From contig JAJRZR010000093.1 of NCBI GenBank assembly GCA_024275145.1, forward strand, positions 7,228-71,227: a DNA stretch of 64,000 bases. The letters run 5' to 3'. The stretch is from Deltaproteobacteria bacterium. Its GTDB lineage: Bacteria > Desulfobacterota > Dissulfuribacteria > Dissulfuribacterales > QOAL01. Under the pieces are notes generated by a model. That model was given only the letters and a program-made list of their open reading frames with translations. It had not been told where the DNA came from and did not search any database. This document shows, piece after piece, positions 2,921 to 59,311 of the stretch (position 1 is its first letter; each line of letters opens with the position of its first letter). Both the position numbers and the translations under genes were made by a program.

Positions 2921-5350
2921 TCAGCCTATCCCAAGTTCCTTTTCCTTCTCTGCAACCAGAAGCCTGGTCTTTACTGCGGTATCCGGTGTAAGGCTCATGG
3001 AATCAATACCACATTCCACCAGGAACGCCGCAAAGTCAGGGAAATCACTCGGGGCCTGGCCACAGATACCGATTTTCCTTCCGGCCTTCTTGGCCACGTC
3101 TATGACCTGCCGAATAAGCCTCTTTACTGCCTCATTACGTTCATCATAGATATGGGCAACAAGCTCGGAGTCCCTGTCGAGGCCTAGGGTAAGCTGGGTC
3201 AAGTCATTTGATCCGATGGAGAAGCCATCGAATACCTCGGCAAACTGGTCAGCCAAGACCACGTTGCTTGGAATCTCACACATGACATAGATCTCGAGAT
3301 CGTTTTCTCCCTGCTTGATGCCATATTTTTCCATTACCCCTATAACCTTTTTGCCCTCGTCCACTGTACGGCAGAAGGGAATCATGGACTTTACGTTGGT
3401 GAGCCCCATATCGTCCCTGACCTTCTTTAATGCCTTACACTCCAGGGCAAAGGCTGGTTCAAAGTCGGGTGAATAATACCTTGAGGCCCCGCGCCAGCCT
3501 ATCATTGGGTTGTGTTCTACCGGTTCATAGATCTGGCCACCTATGAGGTTTGCATATTCGTTGCTCTTGAAATCCGACATCCTTACAATAACGTCCTTTG
3601 GATAGAACCCCGCGGCAATCGTAGCGATTCCCTGTGCCAGGGTATCTACGAAGAATTCGGACTTGTCGTCGTAGGCAGCGGTCTTCTCATCTATCGCTTC
3701 GACCACCTCTTTGATATCCGGATCGGAGGCGGCCTTTTTCTTGAGTTCTTCGTAGTTCAGCAGGGCAAGTGGATGGACCCCGATGTGCGAGTTTATTATG
3801 AACTCGAGTCGGGCAAGGCCTACTCCATCGTTTGGAATTTGTCCCTGGGTGAAGGCCTGCTCCGGTATGCCGACGTTCATCATGATCATGGTCTTGGTCT
3901 TCGGAACATTGGCAAAGTCTATGCGGTTCACCTCGTACTTTAAAAGCCCTTTGTAGATCCTGCCTTCTTCACCTTCTGCACACGAGACCGTGACGTCCAT
4001 GCCGGTCTTTAGAACCTCTGTGCCGTTCTCCGTGCCTACGACACAGGGAATACCGAGTTCCCTCGAGACGATGGCGGCATGGCATGTACGTCCTCCCCTG
4101 TTGGTCACTATGGCAGAGGCGATCTTCATGATGGGCTCCCAGTCAGGGTCTGTCATGTCTGTGACAAGGACTTCACCTTCCCTGAATTCGGCAATCTGGT
4201 CTGCATTTTCAATGACATGGACCTTCCCCTGTCCGATCTTGCTGCCCACGGCCTTGCCGGTCACCAGCACCTCACCGGTCTCCTTGAGGGAGTAGGTTTC
4301 CATGTAATTCTTGCTCTTTTGGGAGTGTACCGTCTCTGGGCGCGCCTGGACGATGAAGAGCTCACCACTACCTGCCTTTTCGCCGTCGCCGTCCTTGGCC
4401 CATTCTATATCCATCCCTTTGTTGTAGTGATCTTCAATGATACAGGCCCATTTGGCAAGTTGCAGAACCTCGTCATCCGAGAGCACATATCTTTTTCTTT
4501 CTTCCGGGGTGGTCTCAATGTTTTTGACCGGCTCCTTGGGGTCGTCGCTATAGATCATTTTTTTCTGCTTGAGACCAAGGCGCTTGCTTACGATGGGCCT
4601 AAATCCCTTTTTGAGGGTAGGCTTGAACACATAGAATTCATCCGGGTTTACTGCTCCCTGGACCACATTTTCCCCAAGTCCCCAGGCCCCTGTGATATAT
4701 ACCACGTCTTCGAAGCCGCTTTCCGTATCCAGGGTAAACATGACACCGGCGCTGGCACAGTCGCTTCGTACCATCTTTTGAACGGCGATGGAAAGATAGA
4801 CATCGAAATGTCCAAAGCCCTTGTCATGGCGGTACGAAATGGCCCTGTCCGTGAACAGGCTCGCAAAGCAGCGGTGGCAGGCATCGATCAGCGCATCGGT
4901 ACCCTTGATGTTGAGATAGGTATCCTGTTGTCCAGCAAAGGAGGCATCAGGAAGGTCTTCAGCAGTGGCAGAGGAGCGAACGGCCACGTCTACATTGGCT
5001 CCGTACATCCCTTCCATCTTGCCATAGGCATCCTTTATGGCCTGTTCCAGGTCCTCTGGGAATTTGGCTTTGAGGATAATTTCCCTCACCCTCTTCCCCC
5101 TGGCTCTCAGGTCCTCTATGTTGTGGGTGTCGAGTCCTTCAAGGGCATCCCTGATGGCCTTTTCTATGCCGGCGTTCTTCAGTAGGTGTTTATAGGCCTC
5201 TGCGGTTATCGCGAAGCCATTCGGCACCTTGACCCCCTGGCTCGTAAGATGTTGATACATCTCACCAAGCGATGCATTTTTCCCTCCAACCAATGGAACA
5301 TCCTTAATTCCAATCTCTTCAAACCACAGTATGAATGGTTTGTCATTCAT
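2921..5350 (-). CDS. ppsA: Phosphoenolpyruvate synthase (pyruvate, water dikinase)
   Basis: About 809 aa with PpsA-like sequence throughout: GGKNASLGEM, the phospho-histidine region TNRGGRTCHAAIVSRELGIP, and a C-terminal PEP-utilising domain. The track starts at GTG 5359, which abuts the SD AAAGGAGG. ATG 5350 has 9-nt spacing and is preferred. Confidence 0.96.
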   Translation of the reverse strand: MNDKPFILWFEEIGIKDVPLVGGKNASLGEMYQHLTSQGVKVPNGFAITAEAYKHLLKNAGIEKAIRDALEGLDTHNIEDLRARGKRVREIILKAKFPEDLEQAIKDAYGKMEGMYGANVDVAVRSSATAEDLPDASFAGQQDTYLNIKGTDALIDACHRCFASLFTDRAISYRHDKGFGHFDVYLSIAVQKMVRSDCASAGVMFTLDTESGFEDVVYITGAWGLGENVVQGAVNPDEFYVFKPTLKKGFRPIVSKRLGLKQKKMIYSDDPKEPVKNIETTPEERKRYVLSDDEVLQLAKWACIIEDHYNKGMDIEWAKDGDGEKAGSGELFIVQARPETVHSQKSKNYMETYSLKETGEVLVTGKAVGSKIGQGKVHVIENADQIAEFREGEVLVTDMTDPDWEPIMKIASAIVTNRGGRTCHAAIVSRELGIPCVVGTENGTEVLKTGMDVTVSCAEGEEGRIYKGLLKYEVNRIDFANVPKTKTMIMMNVGIPEQAFTQGQIPNDGVGLARLEFIINSHIGVHPLALLNYEELKKKAASDPDIKEVVEAIDEKTAAYDDKSEFFVDTLAQGIATIAAGFYPKDVIVRMSDFKSNEYANLIGGQIYEPVEHNPMIGWRGASRYYSPDFEPAFALECKALKKVRDDMGLTNVKSMIPFCRTVDEGKKVIGVMEKYGIKQGENDLEIYVMCEIPSNVVLADQFAEVFDGFSIGSNDLTQLTLGLDRDSELVAHIYDERNEAVKRLIRQVIDVAKKAGRKIGICGQAPSDFPDFAAFLVECGIDSMSLTPDTAVKTRLLVAEKEKELGIG

Positions 5351-5398
5351 GACCGACACCCTCCTTTAATCTCAGGATCTCATTAATATAGATTTTAT

Positions 5399-5417
5399 CG
5401 TGAAAATACATCCTGCC
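5399..5417 (-). repeat. Copy 1 of the recurring intergenic box (minus strand reads GGCAGGATGTATTTTCACG), 48 nt upstream of the ppsA ATG
   Basis: The plus strand reads CGTGAAAATACATCCTGCC. It is identical over 15 nt to the copy at 61507-61521, with about 70% identity over roughly 53 nt of flanks. Confidence 0.6.
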
Positions 5418-5759
5418 CCCGGGCCGTGTTTTTCTCGTGCCTCGGGGTGCGGCACCAAGGTGTACGGGCCGCTTAAACGTTTTTCTATAATTTGGGATAA
5501 TTATCCAGACCAAGGTATTATCCTTTTGTGGCCCTTCCTTCCGGTCAACCCGCTGTCTGCAGGTGGAAAACAGGACTGGATCTTAATTGAACCAGCATAT
5601 AAACTCAACTGCTCTTTTGCCTTTCTTTAGGTGCGCACCTGTCATCTTCATTATCCAGGGATGCCTGCAAAAGCGGTCAACAGACATGGAAATTTATGTT
5701 AAATCTAGCAATGCAAGAAGCCCCTTGTCAACCAGGCCGAAAGAAGCCGGGCTCTACCC

Positions 5760-6137
5760 CTAACCCTCCAGGATTACGATCGCCAGTGCATAATCCCCTT
5801 CGTGGGACAGGCTGACATGCCATATCCTTGCCCCCAGCTTCCCTGCTCTTGTTCTGGCTCCTTGCTTGAGTTCAAGCACAGGCTTGCCGGTTTTTCCATG
5901 GCCAATGGATATGTGCCTCCATGAGATCCCGCCGGATATACCGGTTCCAAGCGCCTTTGAACATGCCTCCTTGGCGGCAAATCTCAGGGCAAGGGATGCT
6001 TCAGGCCTTTTGTGGCCCGTGCAATATGCTATCTCAGAAGGGGTAAAGACCCTTGTAAGGAAGCGTTCCCCCCATCGGTCAACGGCCTTTTTTATCCTGG
6101 GTATATAGACCAGGTCCGTTCCTATGCCGCAGATCAA
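5760..6137 (-). CDS. acpS: Holo-[acyl-carrier-protein] synthase (4'-phosphopantetheinyl transferase)
   Basis: 125 aa, AcpS-like from the N-terminus (ICGIGTDLVYIPRI ... FAAKEACSKALG ... VSLSHEGDYA). TTG start with GGAGA 7 nt upstream. Confidence 0.9.
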   Translation of the reverse strand: MICGIGTDLVYIPRIKKAVDRWGERFLTRVFTPSEIAYCTGHKRPEASLALRFAAKEACSKALGTGISGGISWRHISIGHGKTGKPVLELKQGARTRAGKLGARIWHVSLSHEGDYALAIVILEG

Positions 6138-6189: not shown

Positions 6190-7329
6190 CTAAATGCCCT
6201 TTACGATCTTGAGCATTTCGCGTACCGCCTGGTCCAGGCCCGTAAAGGCGGCCCTTGCGATTATCGCATGCCCTATGCTGAACTCCACGATCTCGCTGAT
6301 CGCCGCAAGGCGCCCGGTATTCCTGTAATTCAAACCATGGCCAGCATGAACCCTCAGTCCCAGATCCGTGGCCAGGCTTGCCATCTTTACTATCTGCTCG
6401 AATTCATCCTCTTCTACCTCGGCATTTTTGGCCTCGGCATACCTGCCTGTGTGTATCTCTATGCATTGGGCCCCTACGCGCCTTGACGCCTTGATCTGAT
6501 CCTCCTCGGGGTCCACAAACAGGCTGACCGGTATACCGGAATCATTCAGCCTGCTTACTGCGTTGCCAATGGATTGTTCAAGGCCTGCTACATCAAGGCC
6601 GCCTTCTGTGGTAAGCTCCTGGCGTTTTTCAGGAACGAGTGTAACGATATCCGGCTTGATTCCAGCCGCTATAGCAATCATCTCATCCGTTGCCGCCATT
6701 TCGAGGGTGAGCCTGGTCTTTGCGGTTTCACGGATCAGACGTACATCCCTGTCCTGGATATGCCTCCTGTCCTCCCTGAGATGCACGACTACGCCGTCTG
6801 CACCGGCAAGCTCCACAATGGCCGCTGCGGCGACTGGATCAGGTTCATCCCCACCGCGTGCCTGCCTTATTGTTGCAATATGATCGACGTTTATACAAAG
6901 ATCTGCCATTGTATTCTCCTTGTTCAGCAAAATTCTAAGTTCCTGTTCCCTTTTTTGCATTCGTTCTGCCCCTTCTGGACCTGTCTCGTGATCTTCGCCA
7001 AGCAGGTGGACCAGGCCGTGGATCAAGAGCTCCGTGAGTCTTTGGCTCAGTCCAGTCAGGGCGTCAGAGGCCTCGCGTTTTGCAGTATCCGCGGAGATTA
7101 CTATGTCACCCAAGAGCGTGGTTTCCTCCTGGGAAAAGGAGATGACGTTTGTCGGTCCCTTTCTTCCAAGCCAGCGTTTGTTTATCCTGGCGATTTCTTC
7201 ATCACCTGTAATCAGGACACCAAGCTCTTTATGTGTAGCTCCGCATGCCCTGAGAAGCCTGCCCGTAGCCCTTTCAAGGGCCTTTTCGGGTATCCGCCCA
7301 GGATATCTGTTGATGACTACTGCCGGCAT
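6190..7329 (-). CDS. ybeY/pdxJ: Single ORF fusing the rRNA-maturation endoribonuclease YbeY (aa 1-140) to pyridoxine 5'-phosphate synthase PdxJ (aa 141-379)
   Basis: The N-terminal part has the YbeY zinc motif [11 protein letters not shown]. From M141 (ATG 6909-6907) it reads [19 protein letters not shown] ... [15 protein letters not shown], which is PdxJ from its native N-terminus. No stop codon lies between the two parts. AAGGAG sits 6 nt upstream of the internal ATG. Confidence 0.85.
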
Positions 7330-8359: not shown

Positions 8360-10108
8360 TCAGACGTCTCCTAGTGCCCTGTCATAGAGTTTGCCAACGC
8401 CGTATTCCTTCCTGCGCAGGAATTTTTCCCATGGTGGGCCGATTATCTGCATTTCCGGGTGTTCCCTCTGGACTTCAAGGGCGATTTGCATCTCTTTGGT
8501 GCAGCCGGTGCTGTAAGTGGCATCCTTGCCCACCCACTCCGGCGGGACCTTATGCCCCATTAGTTCAAAGGCCTTTTCTATATCCTCGACAGTCTGGAAA
8601 CGCCATATATCTATCAGGCCGCTTCTCTGTAAGATTTCCCACATATACATTATGTAGTCTGCGTCCATACCCGGCTCGAAGTGCTCCGCAGGGTTTATTA
8701 CTACAACCCCTTCTTGTTTCTGCCTCAGGTAATTAATAAAGACCTTGAGTATCTTTTTGGCAGTTTCGAGCTCCTGGGGAATGCTTCCCACTATGGCGCT
8801 ATAGAACATGATGGTCTTTCCCCGCTGCTTCTCCATCTTAAGGTGATATATCAGGGCCTCTGCCTTTGCCCTTAGATCTGCCTCAGAGAACCTGATGACC
8901 CTGGGGTGCCTGCGTTTGACACGGAGTTCTATTTCACCGGGACGGTCGTTCGTTATTACCAATATATCCCTTGTAAAGGAGAAACGGGTTTTCAAAAGGC
9001 AAGGGCCATCTACATCACTCCTGTTGACGACGGCGTCTGCCTCCTTGAATGCCCTGGCAAAGGTGACCGACATGAGCAGGGGATTGAAACGTTCCTGGGT
9101 GCCATCTGATATGACAAATAACATCTTGTCGCTTTTGAGCCGGTCTATGAGGGCGTTTTTTGTAATTTGGGGGTTCGTTATGATCTCGGCATCATATAGG
9201 AATTCCTGGAGGAAAGGGTCTTCAAGCACGTCGGCCATGGTAACGGATTCGTAGTAGAATGCCTTCTTGACCACCAGTATGACTTTGATACCCATTCTTA
9301 TGAGTATCCTGATCATGGCCAGATCCAGCAGGATGGAACCTGCGCTTACTCCCATCCACAGCAGATAATGTCTGGTCTTCGCCAATGACCAATCCTTCAA
9401 CGTATCCTGGAACCATTGCCATCCCCTGCCGTTGAGGCGGCAGTCCATCATGGCGGTTAGGTCCTTTTCCTTGAGGTTCCTGGTACCTGTCCAGATTTCA
9501 GAATGCGAGGTAAGGCCCAACAGGCGACGAAGCTGGAGCATGTTGATCCTGAAATTTATTTCATCAAGGGAGGTGCCATCCTCTATTTCCAGCCCCTTCC
9601 GGGCATTGAATGCCTTGTTGAAGGCCTCGGATTTTATGATGTCGTAGATACGCCCATTCTGCTTTTCTTTGACGGAGGCAAGGGGCCGATCTATGTCACT
9701 CACCCTGACAAAAATTTGAAGGAGCCGCTTTTCCAGCCTGGATGGCAGCATGACCAGCGATGCCGTCTCGTGCCTGAATTTGATCTTAAGCAGTGTCAGC
9801 AGGAACCGCCGTTTGTAGGTATTGTCTACCACGGAACGAACCAGTGGCTCGAGCCTTTCCCATATCTTCATATAGGAAAGGACAAGGAATTCGCCCCCTT
9901 TTTTATCTATTATAGTGTGGAATGTCCTGTCGGAACAGGGATAGTAATAGGGCTCATCCTCCAGGAATACGATGAATCTCAACTGTTCGGGAGAGGCAAC
10001 CTCCTGTGGAAAGACCTCATACGCCAGGTGATTTTCCGTATAGAAGTTTGCTATCCAGGCATCTTTTTCTGGATTGGTTCCAGGACGTGGGATAACAGGG
10101 TACTCCAT
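8360..10108 (-). CDS. Uncharacterised 582-aa protein. The central region loosely resembles the DUF89/ARMT1-like fold but with the usual metal-binding residues replaced
   Basis: Long ORF packed 5 nt from phoH and 8 nt from corA. The central stretch ...SILLDLAMIRILIRMGIKVILVVKKAFYYESVTMADV...LFVISDGTQERFNPL... recalls the DUF89 layout (DNAGE...kVtlvvK...ND.T..D...sKGqgNyE). The match is from memory and weak. Confidence 0.55.
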   Translation of the reverse strand: MEYPVIPRPGTNPEKDAWIANFYTENHLAYEVFPQEVASPEQLRFIVFLEDEPYYYPCSDRTFHTIIDKKGGEFLVLSYMKIWERLEPLVRSVVDNTYKRRFLLTLLKIKFRHETASLVMLPSRLEKRLLQIFVRVSDIDRPLASVKEKQNGRIYDIIKSEAFNKAFNARKGLEIEDGTSLDEINFRINMLQLRRLLGLTSHSEIWTGTRNLKEKDLTAMMDCRLNGRGWQWFQDTLKDWSLAKTRHYLLWMGVSAGSILLDLAMIRILIRMGIKVILVVKKAFYYESVTMADVLEDPFLQEFLYDAEIITNPQITKNALIDRLKSDKMLFVISDGTQERFNPLLMSVTFARAFKEADAVVNRSDVDGPCLLKTRFSFTRDILVITNDRPGEIELRVKRRHPRVIRFSEADLRAKAEALIYHLKMEKQRGKTIMFYSAIVGSIPQELETAKKILKVFINYLRQKQEGVVVINPAEHFEPGMDADYIMYMWEILQRSGLIDIWRFQTVEDIEKAFELMGHKVPPEWVGKDATYSTGCTKEMQIALEVQREHPEMQIIGPPWEKFLRRKEYGVGKLYDRALGDV

Positions 10109-10116
10109 GGGGCGTT

Positions 10117-11109
10117 TTAGAACATCTTCTTTTTTATAAATATATACACGACAACTACGGACAGGATGAAGGACAGCCCCATGATCAGGGCAAAGGCATG
10201 CGGAAAATCCTGGAATGGTAATGAAATGTTCATGCCATATATGCTTGCTACCAGGTTCGGGAGCATCAAGACGATGGTTACCGAAGTCAGAAACTTCATC
10301 ACGATGTTCAAGTTGTTGGAAATGACAGAGGCATAGGCGTCCATCATACCGCTGAGGATGTCGCTGAAGATCTTCGCCATCTCGATGGCCTGCTGGTTTT
10401 CGATTTGGGCGTCTTCAAGTATGTCCTCATTTTCTTCATCTATTACCAGATATCTGCCGCTTTCCAGGCGGGCCATTACCAGGTCATTGGCCTTGAGGCT
10501 GGTGTTGAAATATACTAGGCTCTTCTCGAGGTTGAGGAGCTTGATAAGTTCCTGGTTCCTTAAGGACCTGTGAAGCTCTTCTTCATATTCGTTGGTCAGA
10601 CGGTCGATGAGCCGCAGGTGCCTCAGATAGGCATTTGCCACCCTCAGAAATATGTTGAATATGAACCTGACCTTGTCCCTCAGGACCTTCTTGATGTCTT
10701 TTATCTCAAGCAACTGGTCCAGAACAGAGGTATGGTGAAGGCAGATGGTGATGACTACGTCATGTAAGACAATGATGCCAAGGGGTACGGTTTCGTATCG
10801 TATCATATCCCCTTTGTGCTGGGGCAGGGGGATTTTCAAGATGATCAACAACTGCCCTTCATCGCTTTCCACCCTGGAGGTTTCTTCCTCGTCCAAGGGA
10901 TATCTCAGAAATTCAGGCAGTACACCAAGCTTCTTTTCAACGGATTCGAGTTCCTGCTCCGTGGGATTGATGAGATTGATCCAGCTTCCATCGCAGAAAC
11001 TAGAGCAGCGTTCTATTCCATTCTCATTTTGTCTGAAGATAGTGAGCACGGTGTTATGGTAAATGTCTTGCGATCTTGGTTGAATGTGTGTGCCGGGAAA
11101 ATAAACCAC
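10117..11109 (-). CDS. corA: CorA-family Mg2+/Co2+ transporter
   Basis: The C-terminus has two TM helices flanking the signature YGMN (ASIYGMNISLPF), preceded by a soluble N-terminal domain. GTG start, exact start uncertain. Confidence 0.9.
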   Translation of the reverse strand: MVYFPGTHIQPRSQDIYHNTVLTIFRQNENGIERCSSFCDGSWINLINPTEQELESVEKKLGVLPEFLRYPLDEEETSRVESDEGQLLIILKIPLPQHKGDMIRYETVPLGIIVLHDVVITICLHHTSVLDQLLEIKDIKKVLRDKVRFIFNIFLRVANAYLRHLRLIDRLTNEYEEELHRSLRNQELIKLLNLEKSLVYFNTSLKANDLVMARLESGRYLVIDEENEDILEDAQIENQQAIEMAKIFSDILSGMMDAYASVISNNLNIVMKFLTSVTIVLMLPNLVASIYGMNISLPFQDFPHAFALIMGLSFILSVVVVYIFIKKKMF

Positions 11110-11311
11110 GCCCCATGGGTTATGTTTTTTTCATGCCCTGGGGTATGGGCGCCAAGCGCATGGGCCGCATAAGGGTTTATAACGATTTGGCCAAATACGA
11201 ATTGGATATGTATACGCCATAGAATCCTTCAAGGCAAGTAAAGACTGCCAACGCCCCCTACTTTGCCTGGATTTTCTATAAACTTGCAAGCAGCATAATT
11301 CAGCCCCATGG

Positions 11312-13681
11312 ATGCTTGATTGGCAACGGTTATTAAGGATGGCTAAAAACGATGTAAGAACACAGGAGGCCGAACGAATCCTGAGAGGTAGGGTGGAAAG
11401 GGTAACCTTTGCCTCCAGGGAGACCGGTTTCGCTGTGTTGAGAGTCAGGCCTCCCAGGGGAGGGCTTTTTACGGCTATCGGGCACGTGCCGGAACTTTTA
11501 AATAATGCTGGTCTCGAGGGGAGTGAATTCCAATTCTTTGGCATGTGGACCATGACCAGGTATGGTCGCCAGTTTGCCTTTTCACGGTGCAAGCTTATGG
11601 GAAGTGAACTCCTTTTCTTTCTCTCAAGGGTGGTCAAGGGCCTTGGGGAGAGGCTTGCCAGCGAGTTGATAGAGCGTTTCGGTGAGGAGGAATTGTGCCG
11701 CATCCTGGACGAAAGGCCAAAGGAGCTTCTCAAGGTCAAGGGGATTAAGGAAAAGCGGTTGAGCCTGATACTACGTTCCTGGCACAAGCATCGGAGCCTG
11801 AGGGCACTGGCCGAATACCTTGGAGGACATGCCAGCATAACACCGAATCTTTTGATACGCATTTACAATCACTTTGGAGATGCATCCCTGGAGATTGTGA
11901 AGAAGAATCCATACAGCCTGACCGAGGTCAGGGGGATAGGATTCAAGACAGCAGATAAGATCGCCCTTGCAATCGGGGTCAAACAGGACTCTCCATTCAG
12001 GGTCAGAGCAGCAGTCACCCATGTGCTCGTCGAGGCAGCGGAATCAGATGGTAATTGTTTCTTGGCGGAAGGGCCCTTTGTAGATGCCGTACAAGAGGTG
12101 CTTTCTTCGGATGACAACGTGCCTGGGCGTGCTTTGATCATGGGGGTGCTCGAGCCCATGAGACTTGATGGCACCCTGGTGATAGGCCCTGCTGGTGAGA
12201 TAGGGCTTTCCGCCTATAAATATATGGAAGATTGGCTCAGGGAATTTTTTTCTTCAAGGGCAGAGCCGGGGAAAAGGCCCTTGATTTCTGCTGGAGATAT
12301 ACAGGATTTCCTGGAAAGGTACGAAGATGCCATTGGGATAGAGCTTGCACATGAGCAGCGGGAAATAGTCCGGTTAGTGGCAGGGGAACCCCGGATGGTA
12401 TTTGGCCTTGCAGGTTATGCTGGTACAGGTAAGACTACGGTTTGCCGGGCGATCCTCGAGCTTTTATCAGACCGCTATGCCGTAAGGGATGAGATAATAT
12501 GCTGCGCCTTTACGGGCATGGCTGCCTCCAGACTCAGAAAGACCACGGGATATGAGGCTATGACCATTCACGCCCTCCTAAAGTATAAGGGTGAAAACCA
12601 GTTTGAATATGGTCCTGACAAACCGCTTCCATACAAGGTGGTGCTTTTGGATGAGGCATCCATGGTGAGCCTTCCCCTCTTCTACAGGCTTGCCAGGGCG
12701 CTCAAGCCTTCAACCCTTTTCATACTGGTAGGTGATCCTGCGCAATTGCCCCCCATCGGTGCCGGGAACGTCTTTGCAGATGCCCTTTCATGCGGTCTTA
12801 TCCCTTCGGTTCACCTTACCCGGATCTATAGGCAGGGAGCAGGAAGCGTACTTACCCTCTTTGCCAATGAAATACGTCAGGGGAAGGTACCCGAGGGCGT
12901 AGAGGATTCTTGCTGGCAGGATTTTGTTTTCGAAAGACTTGAGAAGCACAACATCTATGCCCTTAAAAAGGGAAGCACCCCACGGGAATTGAAGCGCCTT
13001 CGGGAGGAAAACAACCAGGCGATCCTCGATCGCATCCTGGAGCTGGCCAGGGAATACAAGCAGACACTAACCCATCCTATATGGGATTTTCAGGTACTTA
13101 CCCCCATGAGGGTGGGTCAGCTTGGTACAGAGATCTTTAACCGGGAGCTCCAGAAGATCCTGAACGACGACCCCGGCAAGAAGGGCATAACCAGGGCCGG
13201 CATCCATATAATGGAAGGCGACAAGGTGGTTCATCTGCGAAACAGGGATATGCCTGTAATGGGCTGGCAATCCTTTGTAATGCAGGGAAAGGAATTCCTC
13301 TCAGACGGATTCAGGCGTATCTTCAATGGGAATGTAGGATTGGTGGTAAAGATCGATAACGAGGCGCAGCAGTTCCATGTGGTCTACCCTGAAAGGGTGG
13401 TAGTGGCCTATGATTTCGATCATCTCGGCGATATCGTAGAGCTTGCTTATGCACTTACTGTACACAAGGCTCAGGGTAGTCAGTATAAGATAGTGGTGAT
13501 TCCGCTTACCAATTCGCATTTCATTATGCTCAACAACAAATGGTTCTATACCGCCATAACACGGGCTGAAGAAAGGGTCTACTTGATAGGGCAGCGTTAT
13601 GCCTTGAACCGTGCGTGTACAAATGTGCAGGGAGTTACGCGCAATACCTGGTTGTGCAAAGAGGGCTCGAAGGGCAAGTGA
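11312..13681 (+). CDS. recD2: RecD2-type SF1 ATP-dependent DNA helicase (RecD-like / YrrC)
   Basis: 789 aa. Motifs present: Walker A GLAGYAGTGKTT, VVLLDEASMV, LVGDPAQLPPIG and YALTVHKAQGSQY. N-terminal OB/HhH-like region typical of RecD2. Confidence 0.9.
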   Translation: MLDWQRLLRMAKNDVRTQEAERILRGRVERVTFASRETGFAVLRVRPPRGGLFTAIGHVPELLNNAGLEGSEFQFFGMWTMTRYGRQFAFSRCKLMGSELLFFLSRVVKGLGERLASELIERFGEEELCRILDERPKELLKVKGIKEKRLSLILRSWHKHRSLRALAEYLGGHASITPNLLIRIYNHFGDASLEIVKKNPYSLTEVRGIGFKTADKIALAIGVKQDSPFRVRAAVTHVLVEAAESDGNCFLAEGPFVDAVQEVLSSDDNVPGRALIMGVLEPMRLDGTLVIGPAGEIGLSAYKYMEDWLREFFSSRAEPGKRPLISAGDIQDFLERYEDAIGIELAHEQREIVRLVAGEPRMVFGLAGYAGTGKTTVCRAILELLSDRYAVRDEIICCAFTGMAASRLRKTTGYEAMTIHALLKYKGENQFEYGPDKPLPYKVVLLDEASMVSLPLFYRLARALKPSTLFILVGDPAQLPPIGAGNVFADALSCGLIPSVHLTRIYRQGAGSVLTLFANEIRQGKVPEGVEDSCWQDFVFERLEKHNIYALKKGSTPRELKRLREENNQAILDRILELAREYKQTLTHPIWDFQVLTPMRVGQLGTEIFNRELQKILNDDPGKKGITRAGIHIMEGDKVVHLRNRDMPVMGWQSFVMQGKEFLSDGFRRIFNGNVGLVVKIDNEAQQFHVVYPERVVVAYDFDHLGDIVELAYALTVHKAQGSQYKIVVIPLTNSHFIMLNNKWFYTAITRAEERVYLIGQRYALNRACTNVQGVTRNTWLCKEGSKGK

Positions 13682-15341: not shown

Positions 15342-16937
15342 ATGAAACAGAAATTATTTGCAGTACTGGCGCTAATTGCTGGGCTTTGCATCGCAGGCAT
15401 TGCCCAGGCTGGTCCAGGGTCTGTGGAGGTTCAGACCCTTGGAGATATTACCATAAAGATGGGGGCGCAGATAAGGATCGTTCCTACAGGAGAGGTCAAC
15501 AGGGATTTCGGCGTGAGCGATCGCATGGACAATGTCAAGGAGGCAAGAGCCGCTGCTGCTATGCGGTCCCTGGGGGTTGGGACCGACAGCACCAGGGTGC
15601 ATCTCAACGAGGCAGGCGGTGCGGTGAAGGATAGCTATATCAGGGGGGAAAACCGTTTATTCTTCAATTTCATACATGGCCAGGACTGGGATGTATATAT
15701 GGCCCTGGAATCGGATACGGTACTTGACAGAAGATCTGCGGACCGCACCGATTTTGCCTATGGCCGTCAGAGCCAGCAGTTTGGTATCGAAAGGCTCCTT
15801 GCAAGCTTCAACGTGCCCATGATCCATTCAAGGGTCAAGGCCGGATGGGATGCCAGGGGCATAGATATCGGCTATGGCGGGCTCGTTTACGGGGATGATG
15901 ATCCAGGAATAGGGATCGATGGCGGCATGGATAATTTCAAATGGTCCGTCTGGTATATAAAGAAGGACGAGGACGAGGCCGGTTATTACTACGATCCAAA
16001 TAATCTGGCCATCAACCCCATTGGCTCCCCGGTGCAGGGAAAGGACAACGACCGCACGTACATATATGGCAAGCTTGGGTATTCCATATCCGGTTCCTAT
16101 GTAGAGGGTTTTGTTATGTCCGATCTGAACGATCTTAAAGGCATAAACATAGATCGTTACTTCATGGGCATCAATTACAAGGGAACATACGGTATATTCA
16201 AGCCAGTGGTTGAAATAGCCTATGTAACGGGTGATTACGATGCACCGGGCGTAAAGGATAAGGATATCAGTTCATGGGCTGCCTTTGCAGACTTGGCGTT
16301 CGATCTCCATGAGATGGTCGGGATCAAGAAGTTCGAGGTTCATGTCGGCGGGATATATGCCCAGGGTGATGACGACATGAATGACAACGATCTCGAAGGC
16401 TGGGCACCTGCCGTTGGTATAACCAGGTTTACCCCACGTTTCGGTAGCGAGCAGAGCATTTCGTTCGATGGGAACCCCATACTGGGCCAAACCCTCTACA
16501 GCATCATGCCAGCTTACTACGGTACTATAAGGGGCGCCGGTATCAATGGCGCTGCCGCACTTGACAACCCAGGTCTTCAGATGATCGGAGGCGGTGTAAA
16601 GGCCGCCTATGGTCGTTGGACCTATATTACCAACGTAATGGCCATGTGGTTTGACGAAAGTGATGCAGTAGAGACCTACTATACCAAGGTGGGCAACTTG
16701 GCCAATGTGGATATAGACGAGTTCATGGGGGTTGAGTGGAACAATGAACTCCGCTATCAGGTCTACAAGTCCGTGACCATCAAGGGCGGGGCCGCGTTCC
16801 TGTTCCCTGGTGATGGTGCCAAGGATATCACGAAGGCACTTGACGCAATAGGCCGTGGGCTTACCAATTTCAAGGATGGCCGTGAATCTGACGACGTATC
16901 CATGAGGTTTGCTGCGGAGCTGTTGTGGTTCTTTTAA
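15342..16937 (+). CDS. Outer-membrane beta-barrel porin-like protein
   Basis: Signal peptide MKQKLFAVLALIAGLCIAGIAQA. The sequence is rich in alternating aromatic/Gly/Asp beta-strand patterns. C-terminal ...AAELLWFF ends in Phe, as in OMP sorting signals. AGGAGG upstream. Confidence 0.7.
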   Translation: MKQKLFAVLALIAGLCIAGIAQAGPGSVEVQTLGDITIKMGAQIRIVPTGEVNRDFGVSDRMDNVKEARAAAAMRSLGVGTDSTRVHLNEAGGAVKDSYIRGENRLFFNFIHGQDWDVYMALESDTVLDRRSADRTDFAYGRQSQQFGIERLLASFNVPMIHSRVKAGWDARGIDIGYGGLVYGDDDPGIGIDGGMDNFKWSVWYIKKDEDEAGYYYDPNNLAINPIGSPVQGKDNDRTYIYGKLGYSISGSYVEGFVMSDLNDLKGINIDRYFMGINYKGTYGIFKPVVEIAYVTGDYDAPGVKDKDISSWAAFADLAFDLHEMVGIKKFEVHVGGIYAQGDDDMNDNDLEGWAPAVGITRFTPRFGSEQSISFDGNPILGQTLYSIMPAYYGTIRGAGINGAAALDNPGLQMIGGGVKAAYGRWTYITNVMAMWFDESDAVETYYTKVGNLANVDIDEFMGVEWNNELRYQVYKSVTIKGGAAFLFPGDGAKDITKALDAIGRGLTNFKDGRESDDVSMRFAAELLWFF

Positions 16938-17115: not shown

Positions 17116-18468
17116 TTATGCCGTCTCAGATTGCCTTGGCAACACGGGGACCAGCCTGCCACGCACAGCGCCGACCAGGTAAAGAGAGCCTGCCACACAC
17201 AACAGGTCCGTACTGCACCTGCACGTGTCGAGGCAGTAGGAAAGAGCCCGCTTCCAATTCTTTTCAAGCCGGACAGTCGCACGGTCGTCCAGGTGTTCTT
17301 TCCATTCTTCTATCGTAACGGGATGTCTGGGGCCAGGTGGTTCGGTTATGATCACTTTGTTGAAAAACGGGACAATTTCCTTCAGCATATGGGTGAAGTC
17401 CTTGTCTTTACCCTCGTTTGAGCAGGCCCATAGTAGAATCCAGGTGCTGCTGTCGTCCTTTGACCTGGCCATATCGGCCAGTAGTTCCCTTAGCGCCCTT
17501 GCTCCATCCAGGTTGTGCGCGCCATCGATGAACAGGTCGCATCCCTCGTAGCGTATCCTTTCACCCCTGCCAGGCCATATAAGTTTCCTACACCCTTCTA
17601 TTATATGGGCACGACGGATCTCGAATCCCTTCTTGTTGAGCAGTTCGCACGTAGCCAGGGCCAGTGATAAATTGTCTGCCTGGTGCCTGCCCTTGAGCGC
17701 TGGATCGAGTCCCTTTATTTCCAGACGAATACCTGAATAGTTGGCCCGGCCCTGGTCATCCATGGTAATGTGGAAATCCCTTCCTCTTTTAAACTCCGCG
17801 GCGCCTAGACCCTTGCATCTGCTTGATATTATCCTGGCTGCCTCAGTCCCTGAGGGGACGCCGCTTACCACCTCCACCCCGGGTTTTATGATGCCTGCCT
17901 TCTCGCTGGCGATTTCCCCGATAGATTGCCCCAGATATTTCTGGTGATCGATGCCGATGGTCGTGATTACCGCCACCAGTGGTGAAATTACGTTGGTAGC
18001 ATCAAGCCTGCCTCCAAGACCTGTTTCGAATACGGCGATGTCCACCCGGTTTTCTGCAAACCATACCATGGATATCGCCGTGGTATATTCGAAATAGCTA
18101 AGTTCATAGCCTGCCTCTACTAGGTCTTTGATCTTGAATATTATACGAGCCAGGTCATCATCTGGTATCATCTTGCCGTTTATTTGGAATCTTTCTGCAA
18201 GGTACAGTAGGTGGGGAGAGGTGTAGAGGCCCGTCCTATAGCCGGATGCCCTGAGTATAGAGGCTATCGTTGCGCAGACGGATCCCTTGCCGTTGGTGCC
18301 AGCAACGTGGATTGAGGGGTAATCCATGTGAGGGGCGCCCAGTGCATCAAGTACGGCATGTATCCGCTCCAGCCCCAGGCGAAAACCATGGAACTGAAAT
18401 CCATTCAGGTAATTGATAGCGTCTTCGAGATAAGATTTGTCTTTTTTCATAATCCGATTAGATTCCAT
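17116..18468 (-). CDS. folC: Bifunctional folylpolyglutamate synthase / dihydrofolate synthase
   Basis: 450 aa. Mur-ligase P-loop HVAGTNGKGS and FolC-like sequence throughout. The start may be the second ATG at 18450. Confidence 0.92.
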   Translation of the reverse strand: MESNRIMKKDKSYLEDAINYLNGFQFHGFRLGLERIHAVLDALGAPHMDYPSIHVAGTNGKGSVCATIASILRASGYRTGLYTSPHLLYLAERFQINGKMIPDDDLARIIFKIKDLVEAGYELSYFEYTTAISMVWFAENRVDIAVFETGLGGRLDATNVISPLVAVITTIGIDHQKYLGQSIGEIASEKAGIIKPGVEVVSGVPSGTEAARIISSRCKGLGAAEFKRGRDFHITMDDQGRANYSGIRLEIKGLDPALKGRHQADNLSLALATCELLNKKGFEIRRAHIIEGCRKLIWPGRGERIRYEGCDLFIDGAHNLDGARALRELLADMARSKDDSSTWILLWACSNEGKDKDFTHMLKEIVPFFNKVIITEPPGPRHPVTIEEWKEHLDDRATVRLEKNWKRALSYCLDTCRCSTDLLCVAGSLYLVGAVRGRLVPVLPRQSETA

Positions 18469-18614
18469 CCCAAACCTTCATGCGGCCCAGCCCCCCTGAT
18501 GCCGCACCCCATGGCGGGGGATACGGCCCAAGGGCAGGTGAGTTTTCATGCTATAAATTCGTAGGGGCCGTAAGCGTCCATATTGGAAAGATTTGGGCAT
18601 GCAGGGTAGGCATC

Positions 18615-20129
18615 ATGAAAATGAACACGATAACGGTTCCCATACTAAAATTGGTATTGTTTTGTCTGATTCTGTCCTTCCTGACCGGTTGCCAGGTGCC
18701 TGTTGGCAATTCTACACTGGGTAAATCCGGTTGCAAACGCTGTCACCCAGTAAATCTGGACAAGGCTCATGATCTCCCTTGCCGCTATTGCCACAGGGGT
18801 AATCCAGGTGGACGTTTCAGGAAGATTGCACATCAGGGGCTCGTTTCCCATCCTGCTGATCCTAGGGATATGAAGCAGTTTTGTGGATTCTGCCATCCCG
18901 GCGAGGTGGCTACGATGGCAAATTCTATACATTTTACCTTGAAAAAGGAGATAACCGCGGTATGGGAGGCCTTTTTCCCCGGTGATAGTCCTCGAGGTTT
19001 CCAGGATCTGCCTGTAAGATATCACCCTGAAACTGCAAGGGGGGTGATTGCAGACATGTTGAGGCGCAGGTGTTTGAAATGCCACGTATATTATCAGGGC
19101 GACAGTTATCAGGGAACAAGGAGGGGCACAGGGTGCGCGGCTTGTCATTTTGAAAAAGGCCTTTCCCATTCGCCTTTGGATCACAGGTTCGATAGAAAGG
19201 TGCCGGATGATCGCTGTCTATCATGCCATTATGCCAACTTCGTGGGATGGGACTTTTATGGCAGGTTTGAGGCAGATTATCCCGAGGATTTCAGGGCCCC
19301 ACTATACAAAGGGGCAAACCTGCCAAGGCCCTACGGCGTGGAATGGCATGCCATGACCCCTGATATCCACCAGAGAACGGGCATGGGATGTTCCGATTGC
19401 CATGATCCCATGAAGGGCAGGGTGGCAGGCGATTACGAGCCAGGAAGTGGTTCAGTTGGCACAAGAGGATGCCTTACCTGTCATCTCACTCCTGGTAAGG
19501 GATCAGCCAGGATTATGGATGAAGAGAGGATTGGACACAGACCCGTAGACAGGAAGATCGTTGACTGCGCCACGTGCCATGCCCTCTGGTCTTTCCAGGA
19601 TTACGGCCGTTCACTCACGCGCCAGGATATACCGGATTATGATGACTGGTTTCAACTTGCAGTACAGGGAAGCAGTGAGGTGGAGGTACAGATAGAATCG
19701 AATCTCAAAAGGCCTATTATGGATTGGGAGATACCATGGATGGCCGACAAGTTTACCGGTGAGGACAGATATGGATTGTGGTTGGAGGGATTTTCGAGGC
19801 GCAGGTGGGCCCCTGTGGTGCTCGGGGAATGTTCTGGAAAATTATATGTGATAAGGCCTCTCCTCGATATCTCCGTATCCTATGTGGACTTCAATGACGA
19901 GGTGCTGTTCGATAACCTCAGGCCTGCCATGCATGCTGGATGTAAACCGCTTTCTATCCCGGAATCGCTTTCTATCCCTGCTGGCCATAAACCGGGTCCA
20001 GAGGTGTGGAGGCCTTATGCCCCTCACACCATTGGGAAGGCCGATACCTTCAGGACATTACAGGTGATTGATTGGGTTAAACGTAAACTTTCATGCCTGT
20101 CCGGCCGTTGTGCAGTCCCCCGGACATGA
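18615..20129 (+). CDS. Lipoprotein multihaem c-type cytochrome (nine CxxCH motifs) with a haem-free C-terminal domain
   Basis: From ATG 18615 it reads MKMNTITVPILKLVLFCLILSFLTGC, a signal peptide with lipobox L-T-G-C. Haem motifs: CKRCH, CRYCH, CGFCH, CLKCH, CAACH, CLSCH, CSDCH, CLTCH, CATCH. The last roughly 170 aa have none. Confidence 0.88.
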   Translation: MKMNTITVPILKLVLFCLILSFLTGCQVPVGNSTLGKSGCKRCHPVNLDKAHDLPCRYCHRGNPGGRFRKIAHQGLVSHPADPRDMKQFCGFCHPGEVATMANSIHFTLKKEITAVWEAFFPGDSPRGFQDLPVRYHPETARGVIADMLRRRCLKCHVYYQGDSYQGTRRGTGCAACHFEKGLSHSPLDHRFDRKVPDDRCLSCHYANFVGWDFYGRFEADYPEDFRAPLYKGANLPRPYGVEWHAMTPDIHQRTGMGCSDCHDPMKGRVAGDYEPGSGSVGTRGCLTCHLTPGKGSARIMDEERIGHRPVDRKIVDCATCHALWSFQDYGRSLTRQDIPDYDDWFQLAVQGSSEVEVQIESNLKRPIMDWEIPWMADKFTGEDRYGLWLEGFSRRRWAPVVLGECSGKLYVIRPLLDISVSYVDFNDEVLFDNLRPAMHAGCKPLSIPESLSIPAGHKPGPEVWRPYAPHTIGKADTFRTLQVIDWVKRKLSCLSGRCAVPRT

Positions 20130-20361
20130 AAATATAGCCCGGAAGGAGGGGCACTATTTTTGCGCTAAGTTATGTACTTCAGGAGATACGTTCTGTGAGG
20201 TAGATAACGGTCGGAACCAACCAGGTAATTGCATAATTCGGGGCAAGTGGTTAAGAATGGAGTTCAGTTTCATATCCTTGATCCCAGACACTGCAGCAAG
20301 GGAAAACATCGGCCTAAAACGGCGGTTAGAATATATCAGCAAGAGAAAGGACCATCCCATC

Positions 20362-22934: not shown

Positions 22935-25900
22935 ATGTGGATTAGGCGGATCAGTTTCAAAATTTTAGCAGTTGTCCTGATCTTTCTAGCCGGCGGGATA
23001 TTCATGGCGCAGTGGGCACTCGAGGGGGCCCGGGCCAGGAACCAGAAATATTGGGCACAACGTATCCGGCAGGAGGCAAGGGGCACGGACCTTGAGATCA
23101 CTATCCTTAAGACCTACGCGGACATGTTGTCCGATGATCCTTATGTGCATCACATACTGGCAGATCCTGAAACGGCCAGTGGAGAGGATCGGTGGATGGC
23201 CAGGAGACATTTGGGCGCAGTGGCCGTACGCCCTGGGATTCTTGGTGCCTTCCTTCTGGATGCCGAGGGAACCTGTGTGCTTTCGACCCAGAAGGGTCTG
23301 CCAGGGAAGAATTATGCCTTTCGTCCCTATTTCAAAGGGGCCATGTTCAGTGGACAGGGCTTTTATACCTCCGTGGGGGTCAGCTCTGATTCACTGGATT
23401 TCTATTTTGCCTCCAGGGTTTCTACTGGGGGTAAAGCCATTGGGGTAGCGGTGATCAAGATTGCAAGGGATTTCTTTTCCATTGTGCGGCAAGGACAATC
23501 CGCGACCGGCGACCGCACTCTCCACCTATCCAGGCCATTTAATGCCCTTGCAACAGAGCAGGGCATAATAATCGGTTGCGGCCCAGGTCTCTACGTACTT
23601 GGTCCATTGTCCAGATCCATATACCAACCCGGTTACTTGGACAGGCATCCTTCTGGTATGAATCCACGATCCGTGTCGGAATTGTATCCTAGCGATAGAA
23701 GCAATTACGGCATTTCTGCAAAGGGAGGTCAGGGTGTCAAACAGGCAGTAGGGTCCCTTGGTTTTCCGGCAGGTACGTGGAGACGCCTCAAGACACGGGG
23801 GGCGATAAGGATCAATAATCCGAAGTATGGAGACTTCTATCTGGAGATAGTACCGCTTGATGTAAACGGTCTGGTTTTATTCCATTGTATGCCAGCCGAC
23901 ATGGCGGCTTCTTTCATTCCTGCTTCGGAACCCGTTTACGCCATCATCGCCGCATTTATGGTAACCCTGGTAGCCCTTATCGTTCTCTATCAACTGCTCA
24001 TATCGAAACACGCAGCCCTTCGGGTGGCCAACAGCCGTTTGAAGGATGAGCATCAGGAATACAGCAGGCTCTTTTCCCGGTACAAGACACTCATAGATGC
24101 TACCAGTGAAGGATTCTGGATAGTCGATGCGGAACAGCTCCAGATACTAGAGGTAAACGACGCAATTTGCCGGATGCTGGACTATGACAGACAGGCACTG
24201 ATAGGTAAGACCCCTTTTGATCTGGTGGATGACAAGAATCGCAAGATTCTGATGGAACAGGCCTCACAAAAGGGCAAGGATCGTTGTCTGTTCGAACTAG
24301 AGCTGCTGACCAGGGACGGGCAGGTGCGCTACGTTAGAATATCCTCCATCAAGATCACTGGGCAGGTAGGGGAAGGTGATCTTCGTTTTGCCTTCATTAC
24401 CGATCTTACCGATTATGTAAGGTCCCAGCAACAAATAAGGAAGCTTTCGGTGGCCGTGGAGCAGAGCGCAAATACCGTGGTCATTACGAATACCCAGGGA
24501 GAAATAGAATATGTAAACCCGAAGTTCTGCCAGGTTACAGGCTACAGCAAGGATGAGATCATGGGTAAAAATCCCAGGCTGCTCAAGTCAGGTCTCCAGA
24601 GCAGGGGATTTTATCAGGATCTCTGGAACACCATATCCTCTGGTGCGGTATGGAAGGGCGAATTTTGTAACAAGAAGAAGAACGGAGATGTTTTTTGGGA
24701 AAGCGCCACTATTTCGCCAGTCAGGGATGAACAGGGCAATATTTCCCATTACATAGCGATCAAAGAGGATATAACCGACAAGATAAGATTGAGGACCAGG
24801 CTTGAGGAGACGGCGGCAGAGCTTGATCTTATTATTGAAAATGCCGGGATAGGCATAGCGTACATAAAAAACAGGAGGCTTGTTCGATTAAACAGCGCAA
24901 TGGCCAGACTCTATGGAGCAAGGCCCGATGAATTGATAGGTAAAGACACCTCTTTTATCTATGCCTCCATGGATGACTATGAAAACTATGGCAAGGAAAT
25001 ATATTCCAGGTTGGCAAACGGGGAGACCGTAGTCAAAGAACTTCCATTCAACAGGAAGGACGGAAGCACAATATGGGGCCGGCTTACCGGTAAGGCATTG
25101 GATCCGGGTGATCCTGATGGGGGATCCATATGGATGTTGGAGGATATCACCAGAAGGAAGGCCATGGAGGCTGCCATGGCAAGGAAGGATGCCATCCTCG
25201 AGGCAGTGAGCATGACCTCGAGCCTCCTGCTTACAGGTATCGATTGGAGAGCAGCTGCAGGGCAATTTTTATCTGCCCTCGGCGGTGCCTCGGCGGTAAC
25301 CCGTGCATCAATTCTGAAGCTAGAGAAGAACAAGACTGGTGCCACGGATATAAACGGCGTAGCCCACTGGGCCAGTCCCAATGTTGTATCCAGTTTTTCG
25401 GATTTCCTTGATGCCTTGTCGGACAAAACAGTCCTTTTGCAATCTGTGTTGGGCAGGTTAAAGGACGGAGAGATAGAGGTCATGTATCTCCTTCTTGATT
25501 CTCCCGCAGGTATACAAGAGGAAGGACACCCTGGCGGCATCATGTCTTCTGTCTGTTTATGTCCCATAATTCTTGAAGGCAGTCTTTGGGGGATGCTGGC
25601 CTTTGAGAATTTTGGAAACGAAAGAACATGGTCGGAGGCAGAGCTTGAGGCCTTTAAAGTGGCAGCAAATGTAATATCCGCTGCAATACAGAGGGAATAT
25701 TTTGAATTGGAGAAGAGGCTTGAGGAATTCAAGTTTACTACCATCATATCAAATGCAAACAGCATAATTCTCAGGGTGGATGCGTCCGGTCGGGTTTTGT
25801 TTTTGAACAGGTTTGGTCTAGAGTTCTTTGGTTATACGGAAGACGATATCCGTGGGGAAGAGGCCATCGGCACCATTTTTCCAGAGGGGGAAGGTGTTGC

Positions 25901-43943: not shown

Positions 43944-44225
43944 CATAAAGATCCTCATGTCGGCCGCCCCTTTCACCTGGCTCTGCCTCTATGTCCCTTA
44001 AGGCATTCTGCCTACTTTCCGAAGAGAGTACATGAAAATAGATGCGATTAATCGACCTGGGCCTATGGACCTTTAATATTTCAGGGTGCCGTTGCACAGG
44101 CCTAAGGCACGGTTTTTTCTATTCGTTGGGTGTTCGATACTCTAGATCCCGTACATTGCATCTGGCCAGGGGTGATTCTCGCTAATGCAGGCGGATATCC
44201 ACAAGGGTTAACTATCAGATTCATC

Positions 44226-46151: not shown

Positions 46152-46209
46152 TCTTCACGCAATCCATACCTTGATGCCGTACCCCCATGGCATGGAAACA
46201 CAATCCAAC

Positions 46210-46228
46210 GGCAGGATGTGTCTTCACG
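46210..46228 (+). repeat. Copy of the recurring intergenic box (GGCAGGATGTGTCTTCACG) in the leader of the 46.6-kb operon
   Basis: 17 of 19 nt match the ppsA-proximal copy read in gene orientation. It lies 365 nt upstream of ATG 46594 and overlaps the second copy of the 11-nt direct repeat TCTTCACGCAA. Confidence 0.5.
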
Positions 46229-46593
46229 CAAGCTATCGTGTAACCCATATCCCTTGGCCTGGCAAACAGGCATGCATTTTGTATTAGATGATATACGGTA
46301 AGGTCCTTAGGACAAAAAAATTTGTTATTTCAGTATACTATTTTTATGACTTTGCCCAAACAGGTTCGTCGGGAGTAAAAAACTATAAAGAAATATTTTT
46401 GATCTTCCGATTAATGAAAGTAAGGAACGGGGTTGCCCAGAATTTTCCAGTGCCTTGAAGCAGGAATCCTGCATCTGCCAGCGAGATCATCGCTTATGGG
46501 GGAAAACAGGCCGGATGCCTGGCAGAACGGGCGTGAGGACGTCAGCCTTCGGTAAGAAACCAAAGATCACCACCCTATTTTTGGAGGAAAATT

Positions 46594-58896: not shown

Positions 58897-59064
58897 GTCG
58901 CTTATCTATCCCTTCTGTTGAATTTATTCCATATCGCCTGAATGGGCCTTTTTATATCCAGGCGCGTAGCAACAACGAATGACAGGTTGCTGAGATCCGT
59001 GGCATCTTGTAACGGTTCTTGGATTTGCCCCTCTCCAGTTTTAAGGTGATCATACTGTTGCTAC

Positions 59065-59083
59065 CATGAAAATCCATCCTGCC
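59065..59083 (-). repeat. Copy of the recurring intergenic box (minus strand GGCAGGATGGATTTTCATG), 168 nt upstream of hemC
   Basis: The plus strand reads CATGAAAATCCATCCTGCC. Downstream similarity to copy 1 continues (CCC-TGGTCCGCGTTCTCACGCC versus CCCCCGGGCCGTGTTTTTCTCGTGCC). Confidence 0.55.
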
Positions 59084-59311
59084 CTGGTCCGCGTTCTCAC
59101 GCCCTTGGGGGATACGCGGCGTCAAAAGGTAAGGGCTACATGAGGGCACAAGGTGGATTCCCGGTCTGGATCTGCCATTGCCTTGCCTCTATTGGCTGGC
59201 CATGGCTGGCATTTGTATGAAATTGGACACAAAGATCATCCTGCTGGAAAGATATGTACCCAACCGCTGCGGGGCAGTTAGCCAATGTCAGGGATCGAGG
59301 CCTGTCAACGT

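Follow-up and report, generated by a model that had tools for sequence, protein, structure and literature searches.

The recurrence of a box of about 19 nt in front of ppsA, gmhA, hemC, an FmdB-family gene and a lipoprotein operon raises the question of whether these unrelated transcription units share a regulatory signal or owe the similarity to some other cause. An earlier note on the 64-kb stretch of DNA analyzed here (hereinafter the window) described five copies of the box and proposed that it is the operator of a global regulator, a conserved promoter or a small-RNA element. The analysis of the window and of related genomes suggests a different answer, namely, that the 19-nt box is probably the best-conserved end of a non-coding, dispersed, lineage-specific intergenic repeat of about 90 nt.

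The box and its flanking sequences

On re-reading of the window, the sequences and coordinates of the five boxes all proved correct, including those of the fifth, more diverged copy (59712-59731), which reads exactly as given previously, and the distances to the start codons (48, 153, 168, 172 and 365 nt) agree with the ORFs. The box is non-random: with up to three mismatches, the pattern GGCAGGATGTATTTTCAYG yields 4 matches compared to 0.02 expected, and none of 100 shuffles reached 4. The similarity of the flanking sequences, previously noticed for some pairs of copies, is real and stronger than claimed. Alignment of 190 nt around each box showed that the similarity runs, in every copy, for about 70 nt 5' of the box and for a few nucleotides 3' of it, and the copies align over about 90 nt. 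A repeat finder tied the region 5' of the ppsA box to positions 18472-18515, which led to a sixth, full copy, and a profile HMM (nhmmer) built from the copies and scanned over the window detected nine copies altogether, of which four are full or near-full, two are degenerate and three are partial; the original five are real but incomplete as a set.

The unit is 85-95 nt long and consists, in the 5' to 3' direction, of AAACCTTCATGC, hairpin 1, CATGAARATACAG, a loop, TGTATTTTCAYGG and TAAAWT. It starts with (C/T)(C/T)AAAC(C/T)TTCATGC and ends with TGTATTTTCAYGG, which usually is followed by TAAAWT; the consensus derived from the alignment of the copies is (C/T)(C/T)AAAC(C/T)TTCATGC(A/G)GCCCGTA.CCTTGGTGCCGCACCCCAGGGCATGAARATACAGCCC....CAGGATGTATTTTCAYGG, then TAAAWT. 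The box occupies the 3' half of the loop and the 3' arm of the second hairpin. Within the alignment, a core of 13-19 nt is strongly conserved relative to the remaining unit, and the 3' arm is conserved far better than the 5' arm, which hints at a possible constraint either on the box or on the fold of the forward strand. No reading frame in the unit is consistently open across the copies, and indels shift the frame; on these grounds, a small peptide, a type I toxin ORF and an in-frame insertion of the RPE type were rejected.

Copies in the window

By a crude ORF map, the window is about 90% coding, and all nine copies lie within the non-coding part of roughly 10%, outside genes except for a few bases at gene ends, in agreement with the intergenic location reported earlier. 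The full-length copy in front of ppsA (c1, 5385-5485, minus strand; nhmmer E 2e-22; box 5399-5417) is located between acpS (5760-6137, minus) and ppsA itself (2921-5350, minus), as identified by Pfam. Two further full-length copies are c5 (46146-46243, plus; box 46210-46228), which follows a GGDEF gene (44130-46151, plus) and lies 365 nt 5' of an LpoB-like lipoprotein gene, and c3 (59046-59151, minus; box 59065-59083), between the FmdB-family gene (59312-59539, minus) and hemC (57967-58896, minus). The remaining two of the boxes described earlier belong to incomplete copies. In c4 (59697-59775, minus; nhmmer E 1.9e-9 with c4 itself in the model), which begins 36 nt past the stop of a deoxyhypusine-synthase-like gene (59811-60770, minus), an internal deletion joins the 5' end CAAGCCTTCATATGACCC to the box at 59712-59731. 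The 5'-truncated c2 (61490-61551, minus; model positions 38-98, nhmmer E 2e-10; box 61505-61523) comprises only the hairpin 2 half of the unit and lies between an FMN-reductase gene (61552-62223, minus) and gmhA (60767-61351, minus), which is 153 nt away.

Four copies were missed in the earlier note. The full copy c6 (18469-18565, plus), with the box variant GGCAGGTGAGTTTTCATG at 18533-18550, occupies the divergent spacer between a Mur-ligase-like gene (17116-18468, minus) and a multihaem cytochrome gene (18615-20129, plus). A degenerate full-length copy (11091-11179, minus; nhmmer E 6e-7 to 1.5e-12) lies in another divergent spacer, between corA (10117-11109, minus) and a recD2-like gene (11312-13681, plus), both assigned by Pfam. 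The second degenerate copy (20085-20174, plus; nhmmer E 2e-4 to 2.6e-10) spans the end of the cytochrome gene, 5' of a class IV aminotransferase gene. Finally, a partial copy with hairpin 2 only (59615-59661, minus; CCATGAAAATAC...GTTTTTTTTCATGG; nhmmer E 7e-4 to 2.5e-3) is found directly downstream of c4, in the same spacer.

Several other features of the window were recorded along the way. One ORF of 379 aa (6190-7329, minus) combines a YbeY endoribonuclease domain (aa 31-131) with a PdxJ domain (aa 144-375); apparently, either the two genes are fused or a pair of genes was taken for one. Another ORF is very long (22935-28112, plus; 1725 aa), and three ORFs of 383-582 aa (8360-10108, minus; 15342-16937, plus; 62487-63638, plus) have no Pfam match. 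Two adjacent tRNA-Ser genes, with anticodons TGA and GCT, are located at 32-119 and 157-248.

Distribution and variation of the family

We scanned genome collections, with one genome per species, using a 17-mer core as the query. Most of the hits were single chance matches, and the whole unit was found only on contigs of the metagenome-assembled genome (MAG) 'Deltaproteobacteria bacterium S143_34' (WFZW01); in the collections scanned, full-length relatives are confined to S143_34 and near-identical assemblies, with 99.9% identity among the three S143_34-like assemblies. Two metagenome scans and one viral scan yielded no further members, with nothing beyond the pattern itself matched, and a search of the literature on such repeats in Desulfobacterota found nothing relevant. 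The best named matches ('Thermodesulfobacteria bacterium', Dissulfurirhabdus, Dissulfuribacter and Dissulfurimicrobium) place both carrier genomes in the same broad lineage.

In S143_34-like genomes, the repeat is dense: a 21.6-kb locus around groEL (L212, 99.9% identical to S143_34) contains 11-12 copies, that is, about one per 2 kb. Three of these (L212 3708-3957) are arranged head-to-tail and abut the stop of a polysaccharide-export gene, and the tandem junctions, in which ...CACGGC is directly followed by AAATCTTCATG..., define the boundaries of the unit. The copies share, on average, 66% identity in the window and 71% in S143_34 (with a maximum of 93%), and the mean between the two genomes is 64%. 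Full and degenerate copies coexist with 5'-truncated and internally deleted ones, head-to-tail tandem arrays and copies with alternative 3' extension modules. Some S143_34 subfamilies lack the GGCAGGA half of the box and retain CTGTATTTTCACGG. The 3' module TAARTTATGYACTTCA is present in two S143_34 copies and in the window copy at 20085-20174, whose 3' extension TAAGTTATGTACTTCA is likewise common to two S143_34 copies, and another 3' extension of about 73 nt is common to two S143_34 copies (L076 6940-7016 and L026 40-112), with about 75% identity. The presence of such extra 3' modules in some copies indicates that the family is modular. The 73-nt extension contains a GC-rich inverted repeat of its own and has no Rfam match.

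Orthologous spacers in related genomes

None of the seven ppsA loci of relatives (L117-L123, 22 kb each, with PpsA 86-88% identical) contains a copy of the repeat. In the window, unlike in these loci, ppsA has acpS upstream, so its neighborhood has been rearranged. At about 8000-9900 in L117-L123, ppsA is preceded by a gene for a sigma-54-dependent response regulator and a divergent histidine-kinase gene.

The second comparison involves conserved gene order. Three loci (L124-L126) keep the order FMN-reductase, gmhA, deoxyhypusine-synthase-like gene, FmdB-family gene and hemC, and none of the three carries a copy. The spacer between the FMN-reductase gene and gmhA is 8 nt long in L124 versus 200 nt in the window, where it contains c2 from the stop codon onwards. 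The only trace of the unit in the ppsA and gmhA/hemC loci is in L126, where 16 nt of the same spacer (5256-5413), TATTTTCACGCTAAAC, exactly match the 3' end of a copy from S143_34 (E 0.03), which may be a decayed remnant or a chance match. This spacer also holds several short repeats of the TTGAGC type, and a 307-aa Y1_Tnp-like gene, of RAYT size, lies beside the FMN-reductase/gmhA cluster in L124 (304-1227) and L125 (704-1627). The absence of the repeat from syntenic loci indicates that the element is an addition in particular lineages rather than a conserved control region.

These observations bear directly on the possibility that GGCAGGATGTATTTTCAYG is the binding site of a global transcription factor, with ppsA, gmhA, hemC and the other genes under its joint control. 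The strong conservation of the core relative to the rest of the unit and the intergenic location count in favor of an operator, and two copies contain a short dyad, ATTTT-N6-AAAAT. The palindrome ATTTTCA(C/T)GA(T/C)AAAAT had been attributed to copies 1 and 3; the dyad ATTTTCAYGAYAAAAT is actually found in the ppsA and gmhA copies (1 and 2), and the hemC copy reads ATTTTCATGGTAGCAAC. However, the box is always accompanied by the 70 nt upstream and never stands free, the GGCAGGA half is absent from the S143_34 subfamily that keeps CTGTATTTTCACGG alone, and the distance to the start codons varies from 48 to 365 nt. The box is not conserved at orthologous spacers (seven ppsA and three gmhA/hemC loci), and copies of it are found in tandem arrays and within ORF ends and, in L212, reach a density of about one per 2 kb. 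We consider such an operator very improbable.

Orientation and gene ends

Six spacers of the window are informative with regard to orientation, and in all six the unit has the same sense as both flanking genes; the copies at 11 kb and 18 kb are uninformative because, with divergent genes on the two sides, a copy is co-oriented with one of them whichever way it points. The co-orientation with the downstream gene, one of the original observations, thus holds in the window, but it is reversed in S143_34. Among the seven informative spacers of S143_34/L212, counted from the recorded gene calls with Pfam checks, a single one, between the HDOD and KptA genes, contains the unit in the sense orientation. 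The other six are antisense: the tandem array behind the polysaccharide-export gene, the spacers between an M48 peptidase gene and lspA and between lspA and groES, two spacers in the Fer4-WbqC block, and the spacer between amidase and OmpA genes. The difference between the two genomes in the fraction of co-oriented units (6/6 versus 1/7) is significant (Fisher p = 0.005). Given that the unit flips strand with the genes in both genomes, its orientation is linked to the direction of transcription, not to the replication arm, and the opposite sign in S143_34 removes the main argument that had been advanced for a promoter or an operator. A purely neutral repeat does not explain the orientation bias.

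The ends of copies coincide with stop codons in the window and in S143_34 alike. Copy c5 opens with TAA, the stop codon of the GGDEF gene, c2 begins where the FMN-reductase gene stops, and the TGA of the cytochrome gene (20127-20129) lies inside the CATGAA of the copy at 20085-20174. In S143_34, the stop of WbqC lies inside the CAYG of the unit, and the ORF of an M48/TPR peptidase (L212 7224-8690, with the repeat at 8600-8688; the same as L077 5300-6766, with the repeat at 5300-5395) reads through the entire reverse-complemented unit, for about 30 codons, and ends at the terminal TAG of the unit, suggesting that the repeat may have replaced the original C-terminus.

The 3' end of the unit could also be read as a portable promoter, with an outward -10 element (TAAAWT, two bases after CAYG, with TGn in some copies) driving the downstream gene. 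Most copies have TAAAAT, TATAAA, CAAAAT, TAAATT, TAAATA or TAAGTT after CAYGN, the hexamer is preceded by TG in c6, c2 and c3, and all informative copies of the window point to the downstream gene. These features are offset by the lack of a -35 element at 16-18 nt, by the absence of a credible -10 in c3, c5 and c4, and by the S143_34 sites, 6 of 7 of which are directed not at the downstream gene but at the 3' end of the neighbor. Consensus scans for sigma-70 promoters (-35/-10, 16-18 nt apart) reported none at c1, c2, c3, c4, c5, c6 and 59615-59661, and scans for intrinsic terminators found nothing consistent at the copies covered. Furthermore, with gmhA only 8 nt behind the FMN-reductase gene in L124, no dedicated promoter is expected there. 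A portable promoter therefore seems quite improbable, and the conserved promoter or operator proposed originally does not agree with a box that is a segment of a 90-nt repeat, is absent from orthologous spacers and is reversed in S143_34.

Promoters of other classes were considered as well. The sigma-54 consensus is TGGCAC-N5-TTGC, with GG and GC at a fixed spacing; in GGCAGGATGTATTTTCA, the gap between GG and TTTCA is 2 nt too long, and GC has T in place of its G. Heat-shock (sigma-32) promoters have -35/-10 spacers of 13-15 nt, and CCTTGAT...CCCCAT inside the unit resembles such an element, but its spacer is 7-8 nt. In a GGAAC...CGT motif of the ECF type, the spacing is far too short. All three were rejected.

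Predicted hairpins

On the strand on which the box was originally written, the consensus forms two hairpins: a GC-rich hairpin 1, GC(A/G)GCCC-loop-GGG(T)C(T/C)GC, and a longer, AU-rich hairpin 2, CATGAARATACA(G)-loop-(C)TGTATTTTCAYG. In c1, RNA folding and column pairs place hairpin 1 at 5449-5472 (minus; GCGGCCC-loop-GGTGCCGC) and hairpin 2 at 5399-5439 (minus), with the 5' arm CACGAGAAAAACAC, the loop GGCCCGGGGGCAGGA and the 3' arm TGTATTTTCACG. In alignments of 14 and 19 copies, 80-82% of the hairpin cells are in standard pairs, compared to 31-54% when the partners are slid. The same alignments show no covariation above shuffles: 380-471 of 500 column shuffles pair equally well, the covariation score of the hairpins is below the shuffle mean, and the covariation term of RNAalifold is near zero. 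Because shuffled columns pair equally well, the hairpins appear to be a property of the ancestral sequence. In hairpin 2, the purine 5' arm drifts from A to G and the U-rich 3' arm is nearly invariant, with 35 G·U cells versus 18 A·C cells, 10 of the latter in one column. This excess of G·U would fit folding of the written strand or simply a stronger constraint on the box.

The two hairpins are compatible with the small-RNA element proposed originally and, more generally, with a cis-acting or stand-alone structured RNA, in which the unit would be transcribed and the hairpins would act in the transcript, for example, as a stabilizer of mRNA ends, a processing site or a multicopy sRNA. The G·U excess is what folding of the written strand would be expected to produce, and in both genomes the orientation follows local transcription and not one chromosome strand. 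Against this interpretation are the lack of covariation in both alignments, the fold z-scores of the window copies (-2.0 to +0.9, mostly unremarkable) and the scans, which show no promoter before the unit and no terminator after it; moreover, transcripts in S143_34 would carry the other strand of the unit. Rfam searches of the whole window at the gathering threshold matched only two tRNAs, and permissive searches gave no credible match for c1 or an S143_34 copy (L077a) at E up to 10, nor for L076 at E up to 1. Taken together, these results make a structured RNA rather unlikely.

Comparison with known repeats and origin of the family

The family fits, as judged from its sequence features, a small dispersed repeat of the REP/MITE/MIRU kind: it is non-coding, hairpin-forming, restricted to spacers, modular, decaying and lineage-specific. 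The REP/BIME (PU) elements and the REPINs known from Enterobacteria and Pseudomonas are likewise short, non-coding, hairpin-forming, high-copy-number, extragenic elements, often located just past stop codons or inside operons, with a mosaic, modular structure and a lineage-specific distribution. However, REPs are single palindromes of 20-40 nt with a 5' GTAG or GTGG, often arranged as inverted pairs and associated with a RAYT (Y1 transposase), whereas the present unit, of 85-95 nt, has two different hairpins in direct order, no conserved GTAG and no sequence similarity to REPs, and there is no RAYT homolog in the window or the S143_34 loci. Membership in the REP/REPIN class was accordingly rejected on size, architecture and GTAG.

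MITEs, such as the Correia elements (NEMIS) of Neisseria, share with the repeat the size class (about 100-160 nt), the intergenic spread, the truncated and deleted variants, the hairpins in transcripts and the possibility that some copies supply promoter hexamers. They are defined by terminal inverted repeats and target-site duplications, whereas the best match between the ends of the present unit is only 5-8 nt, and without terminal inverted repeats the unit does not qualify as a MITE. ERIC/IRU elements, imperfect palindromes of about 127 nt in transcribed intergenic regions, also occur as internally deleted and extended variants, but they come from other phyla, have no sequence similarity to the unit and form one long palindrome rather than two separate hairpins.

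The MIRUs of Mycobacterium are units of 40-100 nt that are located in operon spacers, sometimes in tandem, with a preferred orientation relative to the flanking genes and with ends that overlap stop and start codons, and the BOX elements of Streptococcus pneumoniae (BOX/RUP) are modular, with an A-B-C structure. Neither MIRU nor BOX/RUP is related in sequence to the unit, which lacks a small ORF for translational coupling, and, unlike in MIRUs, the orientation preference differs between the two carrier genomes. In the attC sites of integrons, the ends R'' (RYYYAAC) and R' (GTTRRRY) pair with each other, and the sites lie behind cassette genes. The ends of the present unit are not complementary and its neighbors are housekeeping genes, and an attC site was rejected.

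The family would have multiplied at the DNA level, either by transposition catalyzed in trans or by recombination and duplication; the copies would have settled in spacers, in many cases next to or across a stop codon, and decayed afterwards. The box common to ppsA, gmhA, hemC and other genes would then reflect the common descent of the inserted copies, not co-regulation, and any effects on the host, via an mRNA hairpin or the outward -10-like TAAAWT, would be secondary and copy-specific. Mobility is deduced indirectly, as the analysis revealed neither a transposase nor terminal inverted repeats, and no target-site duplication was unambiguous. When the 5' 45 nt were compared with the reverse-complemented 3' 45 nt in five copies, the best matches were 5-8 nt with scores of 5-6, the chance level. 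Most copies have (C/T)(C/T)AAA as the 5' flank and TAAA(A/T) as the 3' flank, which could represent a TAAA-type target or the unit's own ends. No transposase-like ORF was seen adjoining any copy in the 64-kb window and about 50 kb of S143_34, and tblastn with the Y1_Tnp-like protein of L124 found no match in the window or the S143_34 loci.

A more specific possibility, which we regard as unlikely, is that the unit moves or recombines without terminal inverted repeats, that its insertion or retention is tied to transcription, and that its conserved 3' arm, TGTATTTTCAYGG, serves as a recognition site for a protein. Such an element would settle at gene 3' ends and stop codons, in the sense orientation in the window genome and antisense in S143_34, and the candidate binder of TGTATTTTCAYGG could be a nuclease or transposase, or else a factor that binds or processes RNA. 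If true, this would be a new class of orientation-controlled intergenic elements, with a host-level role in shaping mRNA ends.

Implications

The interpretation of the box as the conserved end of a dispersed repeat guards against an erroneous regulon assignment: what ppsA, gmhA, hemC, the FmdB-family gene and the lipoprotein operon would have in common is copies of a repeat, not co-regulation. The repeat would represent a previously undescribed family of small repeats in an uncultured, hydrothermal, Dissulfuribacterales-like branch of Desulfobacterota, where it can interfere with the search for motifs, the assembly of MAGs and the prediction of sRNAs. The orientation of the unit is tied to transcription, with opposite signs in the two genomes, and, if this pattern proves to be genome-wide, it would provide a handle on the insertion or selection of such repeats.
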